A stretch of 64,000 nt of DNA from Thermodesulfovibrionia bacterium (GTDB lineage Bacteria; Nitrospirota; Thermodesulfovibrionia; UBA6902). Shown piece after piece: positions 733 through 18,521 of the stretch. The stretch is taken from contig CAMYND010000001.1 of NCBI GenBank assembly GCA_947259645.1, positions 11,169-75,168 on the forward strand, given 5' to 3'. The notes under the pieces are model-generated. The model was not told the DNA's origin. It saw only the letters and a list, made by a program, of their open reading frames with translations, and did no database searches. The translations under genes and the position numbers were made by a program. The stretch's first letter is position 1, and every line of letters begins with the position of its first letter.

Positions 733-2051
733 TAGTCTTTTCTCCCGGTCACAATAAATATCGGATTGAGTGCGCTCATATGCCTTTTAGTGCCAACAGT
801 CTTTGATCGCGACACTGAAATCTCGCTTATATCTACTGTACATCCAGCGGCTTCAATGCTCGCAACAGCTTCATTCAGGGTTTCAAGTGTCACCGCATTT
901 ATTACAATAATTCCAGAGGCCATGACCTTGACCGCCATCTTTACAATTCCGGTCATATTCCCGCCGCTACCTCCGATAAATACCCTGTCCGGTGCGGGCA
1001 GGTCTTTTAACACGCCAGGCGCTTCACCCTGTATGATTTCAATATTCATACTGCTATACCTGCTTTTATTCTCATGAATGTTTTTAACCTGTGACTCGTC
1101 TTTCTCTATTGCATAGACCTTCAGTTCCGGAGAAAGTCTGGAGGCCTCAAGCGATACAGAGCCGGATCCTGCGCCGATATCCCATAAAACCCCTTTGTTG
1201 AGGAGTCGGAGCTTGTGGAGCGCCACTGCCCTCACCTCATCTTTTGTAATGAGTCCCCGTGAATGTGCAATCTCCGCTTCTCTCAACCCAAAAAAAACGT
1301 CCGAAGAATACGAACCCGCACTCGAAGCTGAAGAGTCCTTTGCCTCTACATCGGTTCGTTTAATAATAACTACATTCGGATGCTGGAAGGTCATTGCTGA
1401 AATCTCTTCGGGCGTCCCCACAACAATTCTCTCATCTTCATACCCTATCTTTTCACATACAAATATTTGTATAGCTGACCGCTGAAAGCTGAAAGCTGAA
1501 GGCTCTATAATTGCCCCCGCAATTTTTTCAGGACTGTTTACCCTGTCGGTAAGGATGGCAATTTTATTATGCCTGCTGACAAGTCCCGGCAATTCAGAAA
1601 TATCATATTCCAGTTTTCGCCTCTTTGACAGATCAGGCCCGCCATGAAAGCTGATGAGTAAGGCATTATTTGAGGTCTCGCCCACCCGGGCAAAGGCCAC
1701 CTGAACACTCGATAGATCCGGAAAGACTTCAACCGAATCCCTGCCGAAACGTTCTACTGCCAACCGTCCTATGCCGAAAAACATCGGGTCCCCGGCAGCA
1801 ATAAGAGCTATCTTTCTCTTCTCATAATTGCCTGCGATATAGTCCATGGTCTCATAGACATTAGCATGAACAATAATTCTGTCTTTTACGCCTTCGTATT
1901 CAGAGTAACCTTTAAATACCTCCAGAAGGCGGCTGTTTACAAGGACATCATCAGACTGATTAACAGCATCTGAAGCCTTTTTTTCAAGGGGCTTAAAACC
2001 TATTCCGACCACGCTTATCTTATTCACTTCTTGATAACACCTTTCCCTCAT
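732..2051 (-). CDS. cbiET: Precorrin-6Y C5,15-methyltransferase (decarboxylating), fused CbiE+CbiT (CobL-like)
   Basis: 439 aa; N-terminal half tetrapyrrole methylase (IAAGDPMFFGIG), C-terminal half CbiT-like SAM MTase (VLWDIGAGSGSVSLEA); start may be slightly downstream of 2051 because of overlap with cbiD. Confidence 0.85.
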   Translation of the reverse strand: MRERCYQEVNKISVVGIGFKPLEKKASDAVNQSDDVLVNSRLLEVFKGYSEYEGVKDRIIVHANVYETMDYIAGNYEKRKIALIAAGDPMFFGIGRLAVERFGRDSVEVFPDLSSVQVAFARVGETSNNALLISFHGGPDLSKRRKLEYDISELPGLVSRHNKIAILTDRVNSPEKIAGAIIEPSAFSFQRSAIQIFVCEKIGYEDERIVVGTPEEISAMTFQHPNVVIIKRTDVEAKDSSASSAGSYSSDVFFGLREAEIAHSRGLITKDEVRAVALHKLRLLNKGVLWDIGAGSGSVSLEASRLSPELKVYAIEKDESQVKNIHENKSRYSSMNIEIIQGEAPGVLKDLPAPDRVFIGGSGGNMTGIVKMAVKVMASGIIVINAVTLETLNEAVASIEAAGCTVDISEISVSRSKTVGTKRHMSALNPIFIVTGRKD

Positions 2052-3204
2052 AGGATATGAGATACGTGATAACAGGCTGTCCCGCTGTTATCTCCTGGGC
2101 ATAGTTCTTCGCAGCCTTACATACTGCATGCAAGGCAGAAAGACTGTTCGCCCCTGTGTTGTCTTCTGCACAGATATAATCAAATATTTCCCGGGCAGTA
2201 TTGAAGCTCTGTTCCTGCGGCACCTTTAGGCCAAGAGAATTCAAAAATGCTACGGCTTTTTTCGTATCAAGGGCTCCGAACTTCACATGAGTCTGTGGTG
2301 TTGCCATCGCAATTTTTACCATCTTAGCCCACTGGGCAGCAAGGTGTATTTTTTCAAACCCCTTTTTCCTGGCTTCCCTGAGGGAGTACTCCAGGTGGTC
2401 GCCCATGAGCGTGTAAGACTCTTCAGGGAGCTGATATTCTTTCATATGGGACTTCTCAGATGCACGCCCGGCGCAGAGGACTACTTCCTTCCGTCCCATT
2501 GCCCGCGCAACGTCCATGGATGATGTTATTGTCATGGTCCATGCCTCTGTTGATATGGGCTTAACTATTCCGGTTGTTCCAAGGATCGATATGCCGCCGA
2601 CTATACCCAGCCGGTGGTTTAATGTCTTTTTTGCTAACTCCTCGCCCTTTGGTACAGATATAGTGATTTCCATTGCATGGGCACGGCACGCCATGCCCCT
2701 ACAGCTGTGTAATGCCTCTCTTACTGCTTCTTTGATCATCGTTCTTGGCACTGGGTTGATCGCGGGCTCACCCACAGGGACTGATAGTCCTGGTTTGGTA
2801 ACCTTGCCAACTCCTTTTCCGCCTTTAATCTGTAGGGGCACGGCATGCCGTGCCCCTACGCTGTCAGCGCTAATTGACCGGGCTTCCGCTACTATCTCCG
2901 CTCCATTTGTCACATCAGGGTCATCCCCGGCATCTTTAATTACCGAGGCCAGGGCTGATACTATCTGGCCTCTGGTTTCAATTTTCTGTTTCTGAATTTG
3001 AAACCTCACTCTGCTGCCATCAGGAAATGGTATTTCAACGTTATGCAGGGGCGAGCCACCGCTCGCCCTGACAGTGTTTCTTTTATTCATTGATAAGAGC
3101 AGAAGAACCGCTGCTTTCGCAGCAGCAGCAGCACAAGCCCCTGTCGTATACCCTGACCTGAGCTTCTTTTTCTTCATTTCATTGTGCCTTAGTGCCTCTG
3201 CCAC
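2020..3204 (-). CDS. cbiD: Cobalt-precorrin-5B C1-methyltransferase CbiD
   Basis: 394 aa, GYTTGACAAAAAKAA signature of CbiD; carries two in-frame palindrome insertions (2677-2702, 2832-2859). Confidence 0.85.
   Translation of the reverse strand: MAEALRHNEMKKKKLRSGYTTGACAAAAAKAAVLLLLSMNKRNTVRASGGSPLHNVEIPFPDGSRVRFQIQKQKIETRGQIVSALASVIKDAGDDPDVTNGAEIVAEARSISADSVGARHAVPLQIKGGKGVGKVTKPGLSVPVGEPAINPVPRTMIKEAVREALHSCRGMACRAHAMEITISVPKGEELAKKTLNHRLGIVGGISILGTTGIVKPISTEAWTMTITSSMDVARAMGRKEVVLCAGRASEKSHMKEYQLPEESYTLMGDHLEYSLREARKKGFEKIHLAAQWAKMVKIAMATPQTHVKFGALDTKKAVAFLNSLGLKVPQEQSFNTAREIFDYICAEDNTGANSLSALHAVCKAAKNYAQEITAGQPVITYLISYEGKVLSRSE
2677..2702. repeat. Palindromic element copy (degenerate: GGGCACGGCACGCCATGCCCCTAC) in-frame inside cbiD
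   Basis: Encodes RGMACRAHAM insertion. Confidence 0.6.
2832..2859. repeat. Palindromic element copy (GTAGGGGCACGGCATGCCGTGCCCCTAC, 28-nt perfect palindrome) in-frame inside cbiD
   Basis: Encodes VGARHAVPLQ insertion. Confidence 0.75.
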
Positions 3205-3216
3205 TTTGTGCCTTTC

Positions 3217-4575
3217 TTAATACTGATACTCATACTCCATCTGCTCAAGTGCATCATCACGGAGGAGGTATTTCAGATTGTCCTCTGCGATCATTTTGAA
3301 GGCATACTGGATGACTTCTTTGTAAAAGTCACAGAACACCGCTTTTTTATACATGTCCCCGCGGGCATGCATTTCAGCCGGGCATGGCGATCCGCATATA
3401 TGCCTGAAATCACAAATATCGCATTCATCAATTTTTTCTACAACACGAGACCTAATCTCTTTGAATGGTTTTGAATTCATTGCCTTCTCAATTGATGTCT
3501 TGAAGATATTACCTCCGGAGAATTCCTTGAATCCAATGAACTCGCCGCAGGGAACCATAGCTCCATCAGCTGTTACCGTAAGGAAGGTACGACCTCCTCC
3601 GCAGGGAGATATGTCGCACATCATTCTCCTTGCCGTCGGTGAAATGATCGCAAGCAACACATTGGCAAAGTTGCCGACAACGATCTGGCGGCCGGTCTTT
3701 TTTGTCAGGTCCATCGCGGTGTTCACCGCCTTTATCAGATGCTTGGCATACTCTGCATCATCCGCCTTTATCTTGTCAGCGCGTTTCTGCGTAAGACGCA
3801 CAGGATTCAGAAGTACCAGGGGCACCCCTTTTTTATGGAGAAATTTCACAAGCTGGGAAAGCTTCTCAACATTCAGCTTTGTGACCGTGCAGATAACATT
3901 CAGTCCCTCATATCCTTTAAACCAATCCAGGGCCTGTACGGCTTTTTTGTAGTTTCCGCCGCCATCTCTGGATACGCGGGAGCGGTTGTTGTCCGCGGCA
4001 GTAGCAGCGTCAAGGGAGATGCCTATTCCAACGCGGTACTTCTTGATAAATTCAACGTCCTCTTTTTCAAGAAGAAGAGAGTTGGTCTGGATTCCGAAGA
4101 GCATTTTCCTGTGATACTTTTTAATAGATTTAAAGAGTATGTCCTTTGCCAGGAGCGGCTCTGCGGCATGGTAGACAATAACAGGTTTTTTCTTCTTGCC
4201 CTTGAAATGCGCTGCGATTTTGCTGAGCGCCAGATCAAGCTGCTCCCATGTCATCTGGGTTCCCTGCGTCCTTATCTTTGAAGGAATATAGCAGTAGGGA
4301 CAGTTGGCATTGCATCTGTCAGTGGGGTCAATATAGACACAGTTCAACGGTTCATTGAATCTGAAGTTATGCATCTCTTTATCAAGATGTTTTATCTCCT
4401 TCTTATACAGCTCGATCATCTTCTGGGGAAGCATGAAATCACCGTTGTTCCTCGGCAGCGCGCTCCAGAATATATTTTCCGGATCAATGGCCAGCTTCCA
4501 GTTTTCATCGATGTTGGAAAAGGACAGTCCCCGTTCCTCTTTTACCGGCGTTGTGCAACTGTTCTTTTTGCTCAT
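3217..4575 (-). CDS. Radical SAM protein with C-terminal SPASM domain and ~85-aa N-terminal extension (RRE-like?)
   Basis: CNANCPYCY (CX3CX2C) motif, C-terminal Cys clusters (CGGGRTF...VPCGEF, CDICDFRHICGSPC) typical of SPASM; good RBS TAAGGAGA before ATG at 4575 (ORF extends to 4677 but internal Met with RBS preferred). Confidence 0.75.
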   Translation of the reverse strand: MSKKNSCTTPVKEERGLSFSNIDENWKLAIDPENIFWSALPRNNGDFMLPQKMIELYKKEIKHLDKEMHNFRFNEPLNCVYIDPTDRCNANCPYCYIPSKIRTQGTQMTWEQLDLALSKIAAHFKGKKKKPVIVYHAAEPLLAKDILFKSIKKYHRKMLFGIQTNSLLLEKEDVEFIKKYRVGIGISLDAATAADNNRSRVSRDGGGNYKKAVQALDWFKGYEGLNVICTVTKLNVEKLSQLVKFLHKKGVPLVLLNPVRLTQKRADKIKADDAEYAKHLIKAVNTAMDLTKKTGRQIVVGNFANVLLAIISPTARRMMCDISPCGGGRTFLTVTADGAMVPCGEFIGFKEFSGGNIFKTSIEKAMNSKPFKEIRSRVVEKIDECDICDFRHICGSPCPAEMHARGDMYKKAVFCDFYKEVIQYAFKMIAEDNLKYLLRDDALEQMEYEYQY

Positions 4576-4736
4576 GGTGCTTTTTCTCCTTATAGTTTTT
4601 TTTAATTCCTTTAATCCAGGCAGATTGTCATACCGAGCGGAGAGAGGAATCTTACGATTTCTCCCTTCAGTCGACATGACAGCTTTTCATGCTTATCATC
4701 CCGGGAAGAATAGACACGACAAATTAAAGAGTGGGC

Positions 4737-4767
4737 AGGCAGACCAGCCTTCAGCAGGCTGATCTGC
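4737..4767 (-). other. 12-bp stem/7-nt loop hairpin between small ORF and rSAM gene (possible attenuator/processing site)
   Basis: GGCAGAUCAGCC-ugcugaa-GGCUGGUCUGCC on the transcript strand, followed by a moderately U-rich stretch. Confidence 0.35.
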
Positions 4768-4786
4768 CAACCCGACACTTCATTGA

Positions 4787-4927
4787 TCAAAGAGGCATTT
4801 TCTTCTTCGGCACGTCACCATACATCACAAAATGAGTAAGGCCGTTAGCGGTCTTTGCACATTTCATGTGATAGGAAACAGCAGCCTTCGTGTTCGCCTT
4901 CTTCGGGGCTTTTCTTGTCTTTTTCAA
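4787..4927 (-). CDS. Possible 46-codon small basic ORF between cbiO and the rSAM gene (hypothetical; TTG start 4 nt after cbiO stop)
   Basis: TTG preceded by GGGAGGTGA (overlapping cbiO 3' end); encodes MKKTRKAPKKANTKAAVSYHMKCAKTANGLTHFVMYGDVPKKKMPL; not in ORF track because <60 aa; unverified. Confidence 0.2.
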   Translation of the reverse strand: MKKTRKAPKKANTKAAVSYHMKCAKTANGLTHFVMYGDVPKKKMPL

Positions 4928-4931
4928 GACG

Positions 4932-5786
4932 TCACCTCCCTTTCAATGAAGTTTCGAGAGATTTGAGAATCTCCCGTCTTGCCTCACCAATGGTGAGGGG
5001 AATGCGATCAAAGGATAATTTATCCTCATGTTTCAGCCGGTAAATAAGTTCCGCAATATGAGGGAGGCGCAGTTTAATATTCGCCATATCCTCCGGTGCG
5101 TTGAATACATCCTCCGGTGTCCCTCCCCTGCTGAAATGACCCTTGCTCAATATATACAAACGGTCAAGAAAGACCGGGACAAGGTCAACGCTGTGTGTGG
5201 CCATTATTACTGTAACGCCATTTTCCTTATTAAGCTTCTGCAACAGCTCCATCATCCTGTATTCACCCATAGGGTCGAGACCTGCTGTAGGCTCATCCAG
5301 AAGGAGCGTTTCATGGCCCATGGCGAGCAGGCCGGCGATACATGCGCGCTTCCGTTGACCGAAACTCAGGTTGTGAACGGACTTTTTCTCAAGGCCCTCC
5401 AGGTCAACCTGTTTCAGTGCATGTAAAACACGGCCTTCAACATCCTGAGCGCCAAGTCCCATATTTGTCGGGCCGAATGCCACATCTTCAAACAGCGTTG
5501 GCGCAAACAACTGGTCATCAGGATTTTGAAAAACAAGACCAACTTTTCTGTATATTTCCCTGGGAGAAAGTTTCGTTATATCAATGCCTGCTAAATATAT
5601 TTCACCCTCAATCCCTTTCAGCAGTTTGTCCATCGCCTTTAAGAGGGTTGTTTTGCCAGACCCATTTGCACCGAGCAGCCCAATAAACTCGCCCTTTCTG
5701 ACATCAAGACTTATGTCATGAAGTGCGCTGGTTCCGTCAGGGTACCTGTAGGACAGGTTTCTCACCGAATACATCAGATCATCCAT
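4932..5786 (-). CDS. cbiO: Cobalt ECF transporter ATP-binding protein CbiO
   Basis: Walker A GANGSGKTT, ABC signature LSFGQRKR, Walker B LLLDEPTAGLD; sits downstream of cbiMNQ. Confidence 0.8.
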   Translation of the reverse strand: MDDLMYSVRNLSYRYPDGTSALHDISLDVRKGEFIGLLGANGSGKTTLLKAMDKLLKGIEGEIYLAGIDITKLSPREIYRKVGLVFQNPDDQLFAPTLFEDVAFGPTNMGLGAQDVEGRVLHALKQVDLEGLEKKSVHNLSFGQRKRACIAGLLAMGHETLLLDEPTAGLDPMGEYRMMELLQKLNKENGVTVIMATHSVDLVPVFLDRLYILSKGHFSRGGTPEDVFNAPEDMANIKLRLPHIAELIYRLKHEDKLSFDRIPLTIGEARREILKSLETSLKGR

Positions 5787-7623: not shown

Positions 7624-8622
7624 CTATCCTCTTTCATCCGCCATTTTCAAGAGCGCGTTTACCATCGCGACTGCCACGGGGGTACCGCCCTTTCTGCTGA
7701 TATTCGTAATAAAGGGAAAGCGCTGCTCACTAAGAAGCACCTTTGACTCAAGGGCCTTTACAAACCCCACCGGAACCCCTATTACTACAGGAAACCCATC
7801 TGCACTGTAGCTGTCTGAGGTCAGGATTTCAATTGTCTTCAGAAGTGCTGTCGGCGCATTTCCTATCGCAATGATGCCGATATTATTTTTACTCTGCAGC
7901 GCCGCTTCTATTCCGATCTCCGACCGGGTTTTATTGCCCGGGTTCTCTGTTTTTTCTCCTGCAGCCTGAAGACTGCAGAGAACCTTCCCGCCCCATTTGC
8001 CGAGCAGCCTCTTGTTAATTCCGGTCCTGACCATCTCAACGTCTGTGAGAATGTCCTTGCCTGCCTTTATTGCGGCGATAGCAGCTTTCACAGCGTCAGG
8101 ATGAAAAGCGATGCTGTTTTTAAATTCAAAATCAGCTGTCGCGTGAATAACACGCTGGACAACAGGAAGCTTCTCATCTGAAATATTGCTGAGGTCGGTC
8201 TCATCAGATATGATCTCGAAACTCCGCGTTTCGATCTCCTCAGGCCTTAATCCCGAAGCTGCATGAATTCTTTCCAGTACAACCTGCGCCATTTTATCGT
8301 GAACACCGAGCGGCTCAGTATAGACAAATTCAACATCAGGATATTTTTTTTCTGCATCCTTAATAATCTCCGGGATATCTGATGAGACATGCATCCCGTT
8401 GCTTAAAAAGTACGGGTGGACAATTACCTTTTTGGCCCCCTTCTGAACACACTCGGCTATGCCCTGCAGAATGTCCGGCTGGGCAAACTGCAGATATGCT
8501 ACACTTACGCAGTTGTCATCGCACTCCGGATGAATCAGGTTGTGCAGCAGCCCGGCTACGTGTTGAATGTTGTTTGCTGTTTTTTTAGGACTCCCATGTC
8601 CTACAATCAGAATTTTTTCCAT
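7624..8622 (-). CDS. cbiX-cbiC: Fusion protein: small CbiX-type sirohydrochlorin cobaltochelatase (N-term) + cobalt-precorrin-8 methylmutase CbiC (C-term)
   Basis: N-term LIVGHGSP...VHPYFLSNGMHVSSDIP (CbiX-small fold); C-term IHATADFEF...IIAIGNAPTALL...GVPVGFV...RKGGTPVAVAMVNALL (CbiC/CobH motifs). Confidence 0.7.
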   Translation of the reverse strand: MEKILIVGHGSPKKTANNIQHVAGLLHNLIHPECDDNCVSVAYLQFAQPDILQGIAECVQKGAKKVIVHPYFLSNGMHVSSDIPEIIKDAEKKYPDVEFVYTEPLGVHDKMAQVVLERIHAASGLRPEEIETRSFEIISDETDLSNISDEKLPVVQRVIHATADFEFKNSIAFHPDAVKAAIAAIKAGKDILTDVEMVRTGINKRLLGKWGGKVLCSLQAAGEKTENPGNKTRSEIGIEAALQSKNNIGIIAIGNAPTALLKTIEILTSDSYSADGFPVVIGVPVGFVKALESKVLLSEQRFPFITNISRKGGTPVAVAMVNALLKMADERG

Positions 8623-12463: not shown

Positions 12464-14061
12464 GAGAGGCCCCCGGGCTGTTTATTCATGCAGTATTCCA
12501 TTCCCACCTGTCGTAAAATAAAACAGATATCTATGTTATTCCTCACCGTATCAGCCCAGCTGTTTATGGCATTCTCTTTTGCTGTCCTGTAACTGAAGGC
12601 GGTTTCCCGGGGCGAGAGTCCTTTTTTCATTCTTAATGCGTTGATTACCGCTGTGCGCAGGCCGTCGTTGTCAAAGATGCCGTGTATATATGTTCCCCAT
12701 ACATTTCCCTTTGTAGATCCGTCTGAAATGGTCTCGCGCGATAGGCCCCTGCGAATTTCAAAGAGCCCAACATCTCCGGTCGTAGAGCCCATATGTATTT
12801 CATAGCCCTTCAGGTTATTCCACCTGCAGCTTGTAGCGCTCTGAACAGCATCAAACCATTTCAGGCTTACCAGGTTCGCTGTTACCTGACAGGTCGTCTT
12901 TGTCCTGTCCATGGTCGTAACAGTATCAAGAAAACCCATGCCGTCAATTTCCTGCAGGTCGCTCTCAACATTGTCAGGGTCAAGCACTTTCTTCCCGATC
13001 ATCTGATAGCCGCCGCAGAGACCGATAAGAGGAGTTCCCTTTTTCACGGCAGCTTTCACGCACTCCTCTATTCCCCGCTCTCTCAGCAGGAGCAGATCAC
13101 TGACCGTGTTTTTCGATCCCGGAATGATGAGCAAATCCGCGGTACTGATATCTTCCTCCCATAAGGAGTATTTCAGCTCAACATCAGGTTCATTCAGAAA
13201 GGGGGCAAAGTCCGTAAAATTCGAGATGTATTTCAGCCGCAGCACCACAACCTTAAGCTCTTTATGGCCTGAATGATCAAATCGGGCGACATGTTCGATG
13301 GAAAGGCCGTCTTCCTCTTCAAGGCCAAGATTGCCCTGATGATAGAGGGTGCCGATCACGGGTCTGCCTGTTTTTTCCTCGATCATTCTCAGGCCGGGGC
13401 GCAGGATATTCATGTCTCCGCGGAATTTATTTACGATGAACGCCTTGATATAATCAGCGTCAGATAGTTCCTGCGTTCCTGTAAGGGCATGGCATGCCAT
13501 GCCCCTACAATCCTTTAATAGCTCAACGGTACCGTAAAACTGGGCAAACACACCGCCCCTGTCAATATCGCCGACAAGGATCACCGGGGCATCAGCATAG
13601 CGGGCGACGCGCATATTGACTACTTCTTCCTTGCTCAGGTTTATCTCTGCCGGGCTTCCCGCCCCCTCGATAATGATCAGATCATAGAGCTTCGAGAGCC
13701 TGTCATAGGCAGCGGTAATTTCTTCCCAGACCCTGTCCTTTATTTCATAGTATTCATGGGCCTTCATTGTCCCGTGGACTTTGCCATTTACAATAACCTG
13801 GCACCCGGCCTCGCCCGTTGCCTTCAGGAGCACCGGATTCATGTCATTGGAGGGTTCCAGCCCGGAAGCCTCAGCCTGAAAAGCCTGGGCACGGCCTATC
13901 TCTCCGCTTTCCCCTGTTATAAAAGAGTTCAGGGCCATGTTCTGCGACTTAAAAGGAGCAACCTTGATCCCCATGTCTTTGAATACCCTGCAGAGGCCCG
14001 CAACGATAGCGCTCTTTCCTGCTCCAGATCCGGTTCCCTGTATCATTATCGCTTTTGCCAT
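12460..14061 (-). CDS. cobQ: Cobyric acid synthase CobQ/CbiP
   Basis: MAKAIMIQGTGSGAGKS N-term, GATase-like C-term; carries in-frame palindrome (CRGMACHAL) at 13481-13508. Confidence 0.85.
   Translation of the reverse strand: MAKAIMIQGTGSGAGKSAIVAGLCRVFKDMGIKVAPFKSQNMALNSFITGESGEIGRAQAFQAEASGLEPSNDMNPVLLKATGEAGCQVIVNGKVHGTMKAHEYYEIKDRVWEEITAAYDRLSKLYDLIIIEGAGSPAEINLSKEEVVNMRVARYADAPVILVGDIDRGGVFAQFYGTVELLKDCRGMACHALTGTQELSDADYIKAFIVNKFRGDMNILRPGLRMIEEKTGRPVIGTLYHQGNLGLEEEDGLSIEHVARFDHSGHKELKVVVLRLKYISNFTDFAPFLNEPDVELKYSLWEEDISTADLLIIPGSKNTVSDLLLLRERGIEECVKAAVKKGTPLIGLCGGYQMIGKKVLDPDNVESDLQEIDGMGFLDTVTTMDRTKTTCQVTANLVSLKWFDAVQSATSCRWNNLKGYEIHMGSTTGDVGLFEIRRGLSRETISDGSTKGNVWGTYIHGIFDNDGLRTAVINALRMKKGLSPRETAFSYRTAKENAINSWADTVRNNIDICFILRQVGMEYCMNKQPGGLS
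13481..13508. repeat. Palindromic element copy (GTAAGGGCATGGCATGCCATGCCCCTAC) in-frame inside cobQ
   Basis: Encodes CRGMACHAL insertion. Confidence 0.75.
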
Positions 14062-17344: not shown

Positions 17345-17565
17345 TCACATCCTCTTCCCTCGAAGGTTTTGCGTGAGGTCACGTTCAGGCAGGTCTTCTG
17401 GCTTTCCCGATCTCTACCAGCCTTCCCTGTAACTTTACAAGTGGCTTCAGTGAGTAGAGACTATCAATTCCGAACAAGTGGAAATCGGGATTACAGCGGC
17501 GGGTCCGCTCCAGCATTTCACTGGATTCCCCTTTAAGCCCATAGAGGGCACCTGAACAGTTTATG
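17345..17565 (-). promoter_or_regulatory. Cobalamin (AdoCbl) riboswitch
   Basis: Transcript strand contains AAAGGGGAAUCCAGUGAAAUGCUGGAGCGGACCCGCCGCUGUAAUCCCG and B12 box GGGAAAGCCAGAAGACCUGCC (plus-strand 17388-17403), matching RF00174 consensus features. Confidence 0.8.
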
Positions 17566-17577
17566 TCTCAGTCTAGA

Positions 17578-18215: not shown

Positions 18216-18521
18216 TCATTTATTACAGGCCCTGTAGCATTTGGCTGATTTCAGGAGAACAAACTCTGTATCTTCCTCATTTTTAACCCTTTTGAAAACT
18301 TCACAGGCCATGCAGGATACCTGCTTCTGGGCGAAACTACCCTGAACTTTTCCTCCGCAGAATGTCCCGGCAACAGCCCAGCAGATACGCCCGCCATCCT
18401 TGCCGGAGTTTACTCCGTCGCTTGATTCATCTGTTGCCGCAGGGCATATACCGAACTCTTCAGTCTGTTCCCCGCCAGGCTCTCTTCCGCATTTTTTTAT
18501 TTCCCAGCAGTTTTTCTTCAT
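18216..18521 (-). CDS. Small Cys-rich protein (9 Cys/101 aa; CWEIKKCG and ICWAVAGTFCGG motifs), putative metal-binding
   Basis: ORF with Cys-rich content and paired CW motifs; no firm family assignment. Confidence 0.4.
   Translation of the reverse strand: MKKNCWEIKKCGREPGGEQTEEFGICPAATDESSDGVNSGKDGGRICWAVAGTFCGGKVQGSFAQKQVSCMACEVFKRVKNEEDTEFVLLKSAKCYRACNK

Follow-up and report, generated by a model that had tools for sequence, protein, structure and literature searches.

The cbpAB locus

We analysed a 64-kb window of a Thermodesulfovibrionia genome (contig CAMYND010000001.1; by window we mean the whole of this stretch), in which a long run of cob and cbi genes for cobamide (vitamin B12) metabolism contains two adjacent genes, cbpA and cbpB, predicted to encode a small peptide and an enzyme of the radical S-adenosylmethionine (SAM) type with a SPASM domain. 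We read this pair, with a probability of roughly 0.6, as a two-gene peptide-maturation cassette that serves cobamide metabolism. An earlier note, made from the letters of this DNA, had drawn attention to a SPASM radical SAM gene between cbiO and cbiD in a riboswitch-controlled cbi operon, and the same arrangement emerges here (Table 1). All features of the cbpAB region are on the minus strand.

Behind a cobalamin riboswitch the genes run in the order cobU, cobT, cobS, cobC, cbiP, cbiB, cobD, cbiA, a cbiX-cbiC fusion, cbiM, cbiN, cbiQ, cbiO, a gap of 356 bp (4576-4931), cbpB, cbiD, cbiET and the start of cbiL at the window edge. They are all on the same strand with intergenic gaps of at most 30 nt, the exception being the 211-nt spacer between cbpA and cbpB. 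Given this riboswitch-controlled setting, cbpAB is predicted to be transcribed as part of the cob/cbi operon and expressed when B12 is scarce.

Table 1. Features of the cbpAB region and sets of loci cited in the text (HMM, hidden Markov model; ORF, open reading frame)
Feature	Position	Strand	Basis
cbpA, precursor peptide gene of 46 codons with a TTG start, MKKTRKAPKKANTKAAVSYHMKCAKTANGLTHFVMYGDVPKKKMPL	4787..4927	-	ORF and homologues
Shine-Dalgarno sequence GGGAGG of cbpA, inside the end of cbiO	4935..4940	-	read from sequence
CbpA conserved core, residues 17-38, VSYHMKCAKTANGLTHFVMYGD, predicted beta-hairpin	4814..4879	-	alignment and AlphaFold2
13-bp GC-rich hairpin (one G-U pair), 19 nt past the cbpA stop	4738..4768	-	fold of spacer
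Second long hairpin in the cbpA-cbpB spacer	4627..4680	-	fold of spacer
cbpB, radical SAM/SPASM peptide maturase, 452 aa	3217..4575	-	TIGR04163 and Pfam
CbpB N-terminal domain (residues 15-75), candidate peptide-binding domain	4351..4533	-	AlphaFold2 secondary structure
Radical SAM cluster motif C88-X3-C92-X2-C95	4291..4314	-	invariant in 64 sequences
SPASM region, eight Cys (C320, C325, C343, C385, C388, C394, C398, C415)	3331..3618	-	invariant in 64 sequences
cbiO, ATPase of the cobalt energy-coupling factor (ECF) transporter, upstream neighbour	4932..5786	-	HMM match
cbiD, downstream neighbour, 12 nt past the cbpB stop	2020..3204	-	HMM match
Cobalamin riboswitch, operon head	17371..17570	-	RF00174, 95.9 bits
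Example loci of the CbpA charge set	L072:7808-7948; L088:9841-10008; L082:60-227		
Loci that also carry the non-canonical Nitrospirota cbi-operon genes	L007, L008, L013, L014, L024, L081		

cbpA is a conserved gene for a small peptide

The gap between cbiO and cbpB holds a short ORF with a TTG start 4 nt past the cbiO stop codon (TGA, 4932-4934). The earlier note had picked out this ORF with its strong ribosome-binding site, and its start and the encoded peptide are identical in our analysis, which reads the site as GGGAGG. The position of this Shine-Dalgarno sequence, within the end of cbiO, implies that translation of cbpA is coupled to that of cbiO. A second ORF in the gap (4611-4790, 59 aa) was rejected, with a homologue in none of the related loci described below.

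A scan of one genome per species found CbpB relatives encoded in at least 594 genomes, and the best 80 loci were kept. Conservation of the small ORF, on which the earlier note had hung its reading, was examined by tblastn: a peptide homologue is present in 75 of the 80 loci, from at least six phyla, and always lies immediately upstream of cbpB on the same strand, the distance to it ranging from -18 to 433 nt. Its core [IV]S[YF][HR][ML]KCAKTANGL[TS]HFVMYGD is almost invariant, with K22, C23, T26, N28, G29, L30, H32, M35, Y36, G37 and D38 as its near-invariant residues, and the N-terminal part varies in both length and sequence. Once distant variants and an uncalled peptide of locus L089 are included, the universal core reduces to C-x4-(N/G)GL(S/T)H(Y/F)xxYGD.

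Over the 22 core codons of 76 sequences, the proportion of differing synonymous sites (pS) is 0.87, near saturation, and that of non-synonymous sites (pN) is 0.085. The resulting in-frame pN/pS is 0.098, and the two alternative frames give 2.2 and 2.6. An ORF this short, with a TTG start and low-complexity tails and often skipped by gene finders, could in principle have arisen by chance or be merely a regulatory upstream ORF; that explanation is already refuted by the conservation analysis and keeps next to no probability, given the low in-frame ratio against values above 2 out of frame, the recurrence of the peptide across phyla, and the survival of its motif in variants whose tails differ greatly. 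By the pattern of substitutions, cbpA is a real protein-coding gene, conserved and under strong purifying selection.

The window peptide is Lys-rich, exactly as the earlier note had quoted it; this richness does not extend to the whole family, in which some variants carry acidic instead of basic tails (e.g. ...ISYRLKCAESGNGLSHYIMYGDLPEE), and a polycationic character was accordingly rejected as a universal feature of CbpA. Public annotation of these peptides is 'hypothetical protein', or the gene is left uncalled. Most Nitrospirota cbpA genes (L001-L042; also L081:9712-9804) start with TTG or GTG, and such starts probably explain why gene callers frequently miss them. A CbpA profile run against 1.84 billion representative proteins retrieved only 20 clusters, and against the Protein Data Bank (PDB) it found nothing meaningful. 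In one protein (L087:199-507, P0232), encoded upstream of a radical SAM gene, an XdhC-like [2Fe-2S] ferredoxin domain and the CbpA core are joined, which could be a true fusion or a gene-calling read-through.

CbpB belongs to a defined family of peptide-modifying enzymes

The ORF listed for the enzyme (3217-4677) would encode 486 aa. In alignments with 10 and then 63 homologues, conservation begins at residues 15-16 (from G16) of a shorter, 452-aa form; the long start at 4677 was therefore rejected in favour of the ATG at 4575, which has AAGGAG (4586-4591) 9 nt upstream. The protein scores 495.9 bits against the NCBIfam family TIGR04163 (peptide-modifying radical SAM enzyme CbpB; cutoff 375), in a match that spans residues 25-434 and profile positions 10-424 of 428, as a full-length member would. 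Scores and cutoffs of the runner-up models are 134.6/340 for PapB, 121.9/450 for DynA, 115.1/370 for HxsB, 113.9/349 for the anaerobic sulfatase-maturating enzyme (anSME) and 61.6/500 for AhbD. Pfam recognises the Radical_SAM (PF04055) and SPASM (PF13186) domains. The nearest relatives, at 59-89% identity, come from metagenome-assembled genomes of Nitrospirota/Thermodesulfovibrionia and are named CbpB at NCBI; an exact-match look-up of the window CbpB returned no record.

The profile comparison that the earlier note had called for thus places the enzyme in CbpB and not among the AhbD, NirJ or sulfatase-maturase families. Identity as a sulfatase maturase was rejected on its score, and the tetrapyrrole-modifying AhbD/NirJ identity that the note had held out as an alternative fell with the AhbD score and with NirJ (cutoff 515) outside the top 25 families for the window protein. 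Across the relatives and the window protein, the AhbD, NirJ and AhbC models reach 45-73 bits against cutoffs of 500-650; for AhbD and NirJ in the relatives the range is 45-71 bits.

The CX3CX2C motif had been read as following an extension of about 85 aa, in agreement with the 87 residues that we count ahead of C88. The eight SPASM cysteines predict, from their pattern, two fully Cys-ligated auxiliary [4Fe-4S] clusters; their spacing probably matches that in the anSME structure. An AlphaFold2 model of CbpB (predicted local distance difference test, pLDDT, 82; predicted template modelling score 0.85) finds its best PDB match in CteB (5WHY/5WGG; E = 3e-20, template modelling score, TM, 0.68-0.72), followed by anSME, ChlB, TigE, SuiB and SkfB, all of them peptide- or protein-modifying radical SAM-SPASM enzymes. 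A profile search of PDB sequences concurs, with similarity to CteB beginning at CbpB residue 74 and CteB residue 101. Identity to characterised enzymes is about 20%.

The first ~73 residues are modelled as three beta-strands and a single long helix. A recognition element (RRE) of RiPPs (peptides synthesised on the ribosome and modified after translation) was taken to be a winged helix-turn-helix with a three-stranded sheet and three helices, together with a match to an RRE/PqqD profile; no PqqD/RRE Pfam match was obtained for this domain at E <= 1. It sits where the RRE of CteB sits, and may be RRE-like. Of the maturase with an RRE-like extension that the earlier note had described, the peptide-maturase family is upheld by TIGR04163, and the extension is a candidate RRE.

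Set beside CteB, the maturase of a SCIFF peptide (ranthipeptide/sactipeptide), and PapB, its best-scoring enzyme outside the family, CbpB shares the N-terminal extension ahead of the radical SAM core and SPASM domain. It differs in its identity to them of just ~18-20%, in an N-terminal domain of ~73 rather than the ~100 residues of CteB, in having all eight SPASM cysteines, in a partner peptide with one Cys instead of several, and in its metabolic gene context. The core fold of anSME (4K36-4K39) is similar (TM 0.80-0.84 relative to the target) and its eight-Cys SPASM pattern is common to both; anSME, however, lacks the N-terminal domain, and CbpA lacks the sulfatase motif C/S-X-P/A-X-R.

The window peptide lies beyond the reach of the existing CbpA model

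NCBIfam also holds a family for the modified peptide precursor CbpA, TIGR04164, whose model is 25 positions long and has its cutoff at 35 bits. The window peptide gave no match to it even at E <= 10. TIGR04164 does match 20 of 37 aligned homologues, at 12-21 bits (best E = 2.3e-6) and with no other plausible family, and the best-scoring CbpA variants reach 17-29.5 bits; all homologues remain below the cutoff, and the matches end at profile position 19 or 20, having begun at position 1. When a profile is made from the clade of the window peptide, it recovers the very variants that score best against TIGR04164, and the motif C-x4-NGL(S/T)H(Y/F)xxYGD is shared with the sequences that the model recognises. 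By these sequence comparisons the window peptide looks like part of a divergent CbpA subfamily outside the model's reach, rather than a model-defined member; with relatives short of the cutoff and the window peptide unmatched, annotators call such peptides hypothetical or miss them.

The locus is very probably a CbpA/CbpB pair. With the NCBIfam families it has in common an enzyme above its cutoff, a short peptide gene directly upstream and a cobalamin operon, and it departs from them in a peptide unmatched by TIGR04164, with relatives at 12-29 bits against the required 35. A claim that the module is new does not hold, as TIGR04163 and TIGR04164 already define it; the existence of the pair is not a discovery, and the window locus is a further member of a family defined by bioinformatics.

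cbpAB is linked to cobamide genes across phyla

The 81 loci examined represent several phyla, among them Nitrospirota, Omnitrophota, Planctomycetota and Bacillota; 77 of them have a recognised cob or cbi gene within 3 kb of cbpAB and on its strand. Of 8 distant loci tested, 7 have a cobalamin riboswitch at the head of the cbpAB unit. A lack of conserved linkage to cbi genes, which the earlier note had named as counting against its reading, is not what the synteny comparison found. Exceptions with no cob gene nearby include L049, L056 and L070. The neighbours themselves are shuffled, with at least 12 different genes upstream of cbpAB: the window and most Nitrospirota have cbiO|cbpAB|cbiD, after the cobalt transporter genes cbiMNQO, and elsewhere we find cobD|cbpAB, cbiB|cbpAB|cbiA, cbiP|cbpAB|cbiB, cobU|cbpAB|cobT, cobT|cbpAB|cobS, cbiX|cbpAB|methylase and cbiH|cbpAB. 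Since the linkage survives this shuffling, the pair appears to share its function with cobamide metabolism and not with one neighbour. A specific tie to cobalt transport was ruled out by the varying operon position. Several operons of Planctomycetota and Omnitrophota have cbpAB after late-step genes only (cbiP, cobU/T/S, cobD, cbiB) and before a BtuFCD-like importer, which points to late steps or to general corrinoid handling and not to ring synthesis. The B12-regulated peptide or RiPP-like module imagined in the earlier note is thereby borne out in its main lines, by an enzyme above its family cutoff, a conserved and selected peptide, and linkage to cob/cbi genes and riboswitches.

The position after cbiMNQO in the window and in most Nitrospirota, together with conserved Cys, His, Met, Tyr and Asp residues that could bind metal, would also suit a secreted RiPP, for instance a signal or a metallophore that scavenges cobalt, with no tie to the need for B12 beyond co-regulation. 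We consider this very unlikely: no exporter, leader peptidase or cleavage motif accompanies the pair, a near-invariant core across phyla is unusual among secreted RiPPs, and in Omnitrophota cbiMNQO stands behind its own, second riboswitch, in a unit separate from cbpAB. That second riboswitch lies before cbiMNQO at L069 (11990-12162) and L053 (12198-12371), separating it from the cbpAB unit; L047 also has a second riboswitch (12689-12870), downstream of its BtuFCD-like importer.

The charge of CbpA follows gene context. Among 79 context-scored peptides, all 72 that are cob-linked are basic (net charge at least +3; the family median is +9), and each of the five non-basic peptides whose context is known comes from outside the cob operons (Fisher p = 9e-7, uncorrected for phylogeny; example loci in Table 1). 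This fits tails tuned to a partner, possibly polyanionic corrin intermediates, as a correlation only. We found no CbiJ (cobalt-precorrin-6A reductase) in the window or in the fetched loci except at L045 (15362-16201), and the gene is missing even from fetched operons in which cbiD, ET, L, F, G and H are present. The idea that CbpAB replaces CbiJ was weakened by the occurrence of cbpAB in operons of late-step genes only and by the coexistence of both in L045, and this coexistence makes simple replacement unlikely.

The same observations bear on a different explanation, in which the target of CbpB is a corrinoid or another tetrapyrrole, as with AhbD and NirJ, themselves SPASM radical SAM enzymes among tetrapyrrole genes, and CbpA is a partner such as a small subunit or carrier rather than the substrate. 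The proximity of the pair to cob/cbi genes (and at one distant locus to hemL), the strongly cationic charge of cob-linked CbpAs facing polyanionic corrin intermediates, and the near-absence of CbiJ from the fetched cbpAB operons would all suit it. We nonetheless regard it as quite unlikely, in view of the AhbD, NirJ and AhbC scores far under their cutoffs, the lack of a partner peptide in AhbD and NirJ systems, the nearest structures and profiles, which are peptide maturases throughout, the L045 operon that has CbiJ as well, and operons in which the pair is found with late or salvage genes only. A role of cbpAB in lower-ligand or corrin tailoring, suggested in the earlier note, is speculation.

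A hairpin follows cbpA

The note had also reported a 12-bp hairpin after the small ORF, which we find as a stem of 13 bp (Table 1). The 241-nt spacer region folds far better than shuffled controls (z = -5.0). When a strong hairpin is defined as a 50-nt stretch, within ~120 nt past a stop codon, that folds at -20 kcal/mol or below, one follows the cbpA stop in 77% of 75 loci. The cbpB stop has one in 29% of cases (Mann-Whitney p = 8e-12), and random windows reach this strength in 10% (p = 1e-24). In close relatives the position of the first hairpin is kept and its sequence is not; the second hairpin, which overlaps the spurious upstream ATG of the long cbpB ORF, is not conserved in them. A conserved spacer RNA was ruled out, the position of the first hairpin alone being conserved, as was a canonical intrinsic terminator after cbpA, since no U-run follows the first hairpin and it is not called as one. 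It is likely a partial attenuator, or a 3'-end or messenger RNA stabiliser, that raises the ratio of peptide to enzyme message.

A hairpin past the precursor gene suggests a peptide consumed in quantity, and this could mean that CbpA, like PqqA of pyrroloquinoline quinone or MftA of mycofactocin, is the precursor of an excised, peptide-derived cofactor. CbpB would then modify the Tyr36-Gly-Asp38 region or the Cys, and the excised product would serve cobamide synthesis as a redox cofactor or building block. The invariant YGD, the metabolic operon as opposed to a natural-product cluster, and the SPASM class of CbpB, which we take to be that of PqqE and MftC, agree with such a scheme, and the PqqA/PqqE and MftA/MftC systems likewise pair a small conserved peptide with a SPASM radical SAM enzyme, in primary metabolism and with the precursor gene first. 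Excision is nevertheless unlikely in our judgement: the loci show no conserved peptidase or additional tailoring gene beside the pair and none of the PqqB/C/D/F-like or MftB/D/E/F-like partners, and ~22 conserved residues with a hairpin fold, a much longer conserved region than in those precursors, suggest that the whole peptide is the functional unit.

A proposed mechanism

AlphaFold2 models the CbpA core as a beta-hairpin, with strands at residues 19-25 and 31-37, the turn T-A-N-G-L and a mean pLDDT of 90 over residues 21-30. In the register derived from the DSSP strand limits of this model, Cys23, the sole invariant cysteine, would face the invariant aromatic residue 33, and His32, Tyr36 and Asp38 would lie on the opposite face.

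We propose the following scheme for the peptide-maturation cassette. The hairpin after cbpA would make the message for the peptide longer-lived or more abundant than that for the enzyme, as fits a substrate used in quantity. CbpA is probably the substrate of CbpB, and it is somewhat better than an even bet that their product serves cobamide metabolism. CbpB, with one radical SAM cluster and two auxiliary clusters, would bind the hairpin core of CbpA, possibly through its N-terminal beta-sheet domain, and its 5'-deoxyadenosyl radical would abstract a hydrogen atom to form one intramolecular cross-link in the peptide. The structural and profile relatives include the thioether formers CteB and PapB, and for this reason we favour a single cross-strand thioether that joins Cys23 to aromatic residue 33 or one close to it, with Asp38 or Thr26 as alternative partners; such a bond would staple the hairpin in the manner of sactipeptides and ranthipeptides. 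A Cys thioether in CbpA is still a tentative assignment by analogy, and the preference is weak because identity to the characterised enzymes is low and the full set of eight SPASM cysteines resembles that of anSME. Conservation extends over all 22 residues of the hairpin, and neither a peptidase nor an exporter accompanies the pair, so that the intact modified peptide would be the functional product: an intracellular accessory factor in cobalt or corrinoid handling, displaying the invariant His32, Met35, Tyr36 and Asp38, and not an antibiotic.

Several points weigh against this reading. At such low identity to characterised enzymes the chemistry cannot be read off the sequence. CteB has an open site on auxiliary cluster I that binds the substrate Cys; in CbpB all eight SPASM cysteines are present and this cluster is probably fully ligated, as in anSME and unlike CteB, which weakens a thioether mechanism of the CteB type. 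Five loci have no cbpA; one of them is cut by a contig end, and the other four truly lack an upstream cbpA. Some pairs stand outside cob operons: at L088 (9841-12668) the cbpB stop is overlapped by the hemL start, at L072 (7808-13046) cbpAB is followed by ubiV, ubiK, ubiB and ubiE, and at L089 (9900-11796, with cbpA uncalled) and L090 dsrC comes after it, in archaeal-like surroundings. The role of the product may thus be a broader one. Finally, a full-text literature search found no experiment or paper on CbpA/CbpB.

Significance

To our knowledge the enzymology of B12 biosynthesis, including the anaerobic cobamide pathway, is regarded as complete. At least 594 species genomes encode a cbpB relative, and among the 81 loci the pair stands almost always in riboswitch-controlled B12 operons; the function of the modified peptide, once found, could bring to light an accessory step, a carrier or a cofactor that is new to the anaerobic synthesis or salvage of cobamides, and could extend RiPP-type chemistry into primary metabolism. 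A wider and doubtful possibility is that the anaerobic pathway has, in all these genomes, an unrecognised peptide component: a ribosomal peptide, stapled as a hairpin, that with its cationic tails and its His/Met/Tyr/Asp face would carry or protect cobalt or polyanionic corrinoid intermediates, or that would supply a missing function, e.g. a reduction step, with the acidic-tail variants serving other anaerobic cofactor pathways (hemL, ubiV, dsrC). It is now possible to test what part the modified peptide plays in B12 metabolism. The alignment from this analysis would also fix the annotation of CbpA, missed through TTG starts and a profile that falls short of the subfamily.

Other features of the window and of related operons

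In the window, CbiX (small cobaltochelatase) and CbiC (methylmutase) are fused in one protein (7624-8622, minus strand). Just upstream of the riboswitch region lies an ORF for a Cys-rich protein of 101 aa (18216-18521, minus strand; CWEIKKCG..., with several C-x2-C spacings) that has no Pfam match at E <= 1. Across the related loci, CbiX of Omnitrophota (L069:10607-11338) carries an N-terminal Cys-rich zf-like domain (PF04071), and no adjacent protease, exporter or immunity gene is consistently conserved among the loci examined. Nitrospirota cbi operons recurrently include an HD-domain protein, between cbiL and cbiF or after a cbiE-like methylase (L021:12724-13506), and a BPL_N/GATase1-like protein of ~450 aa after cbiH (L021:16215-17315); further loci that carry these genes are given in Table 1.

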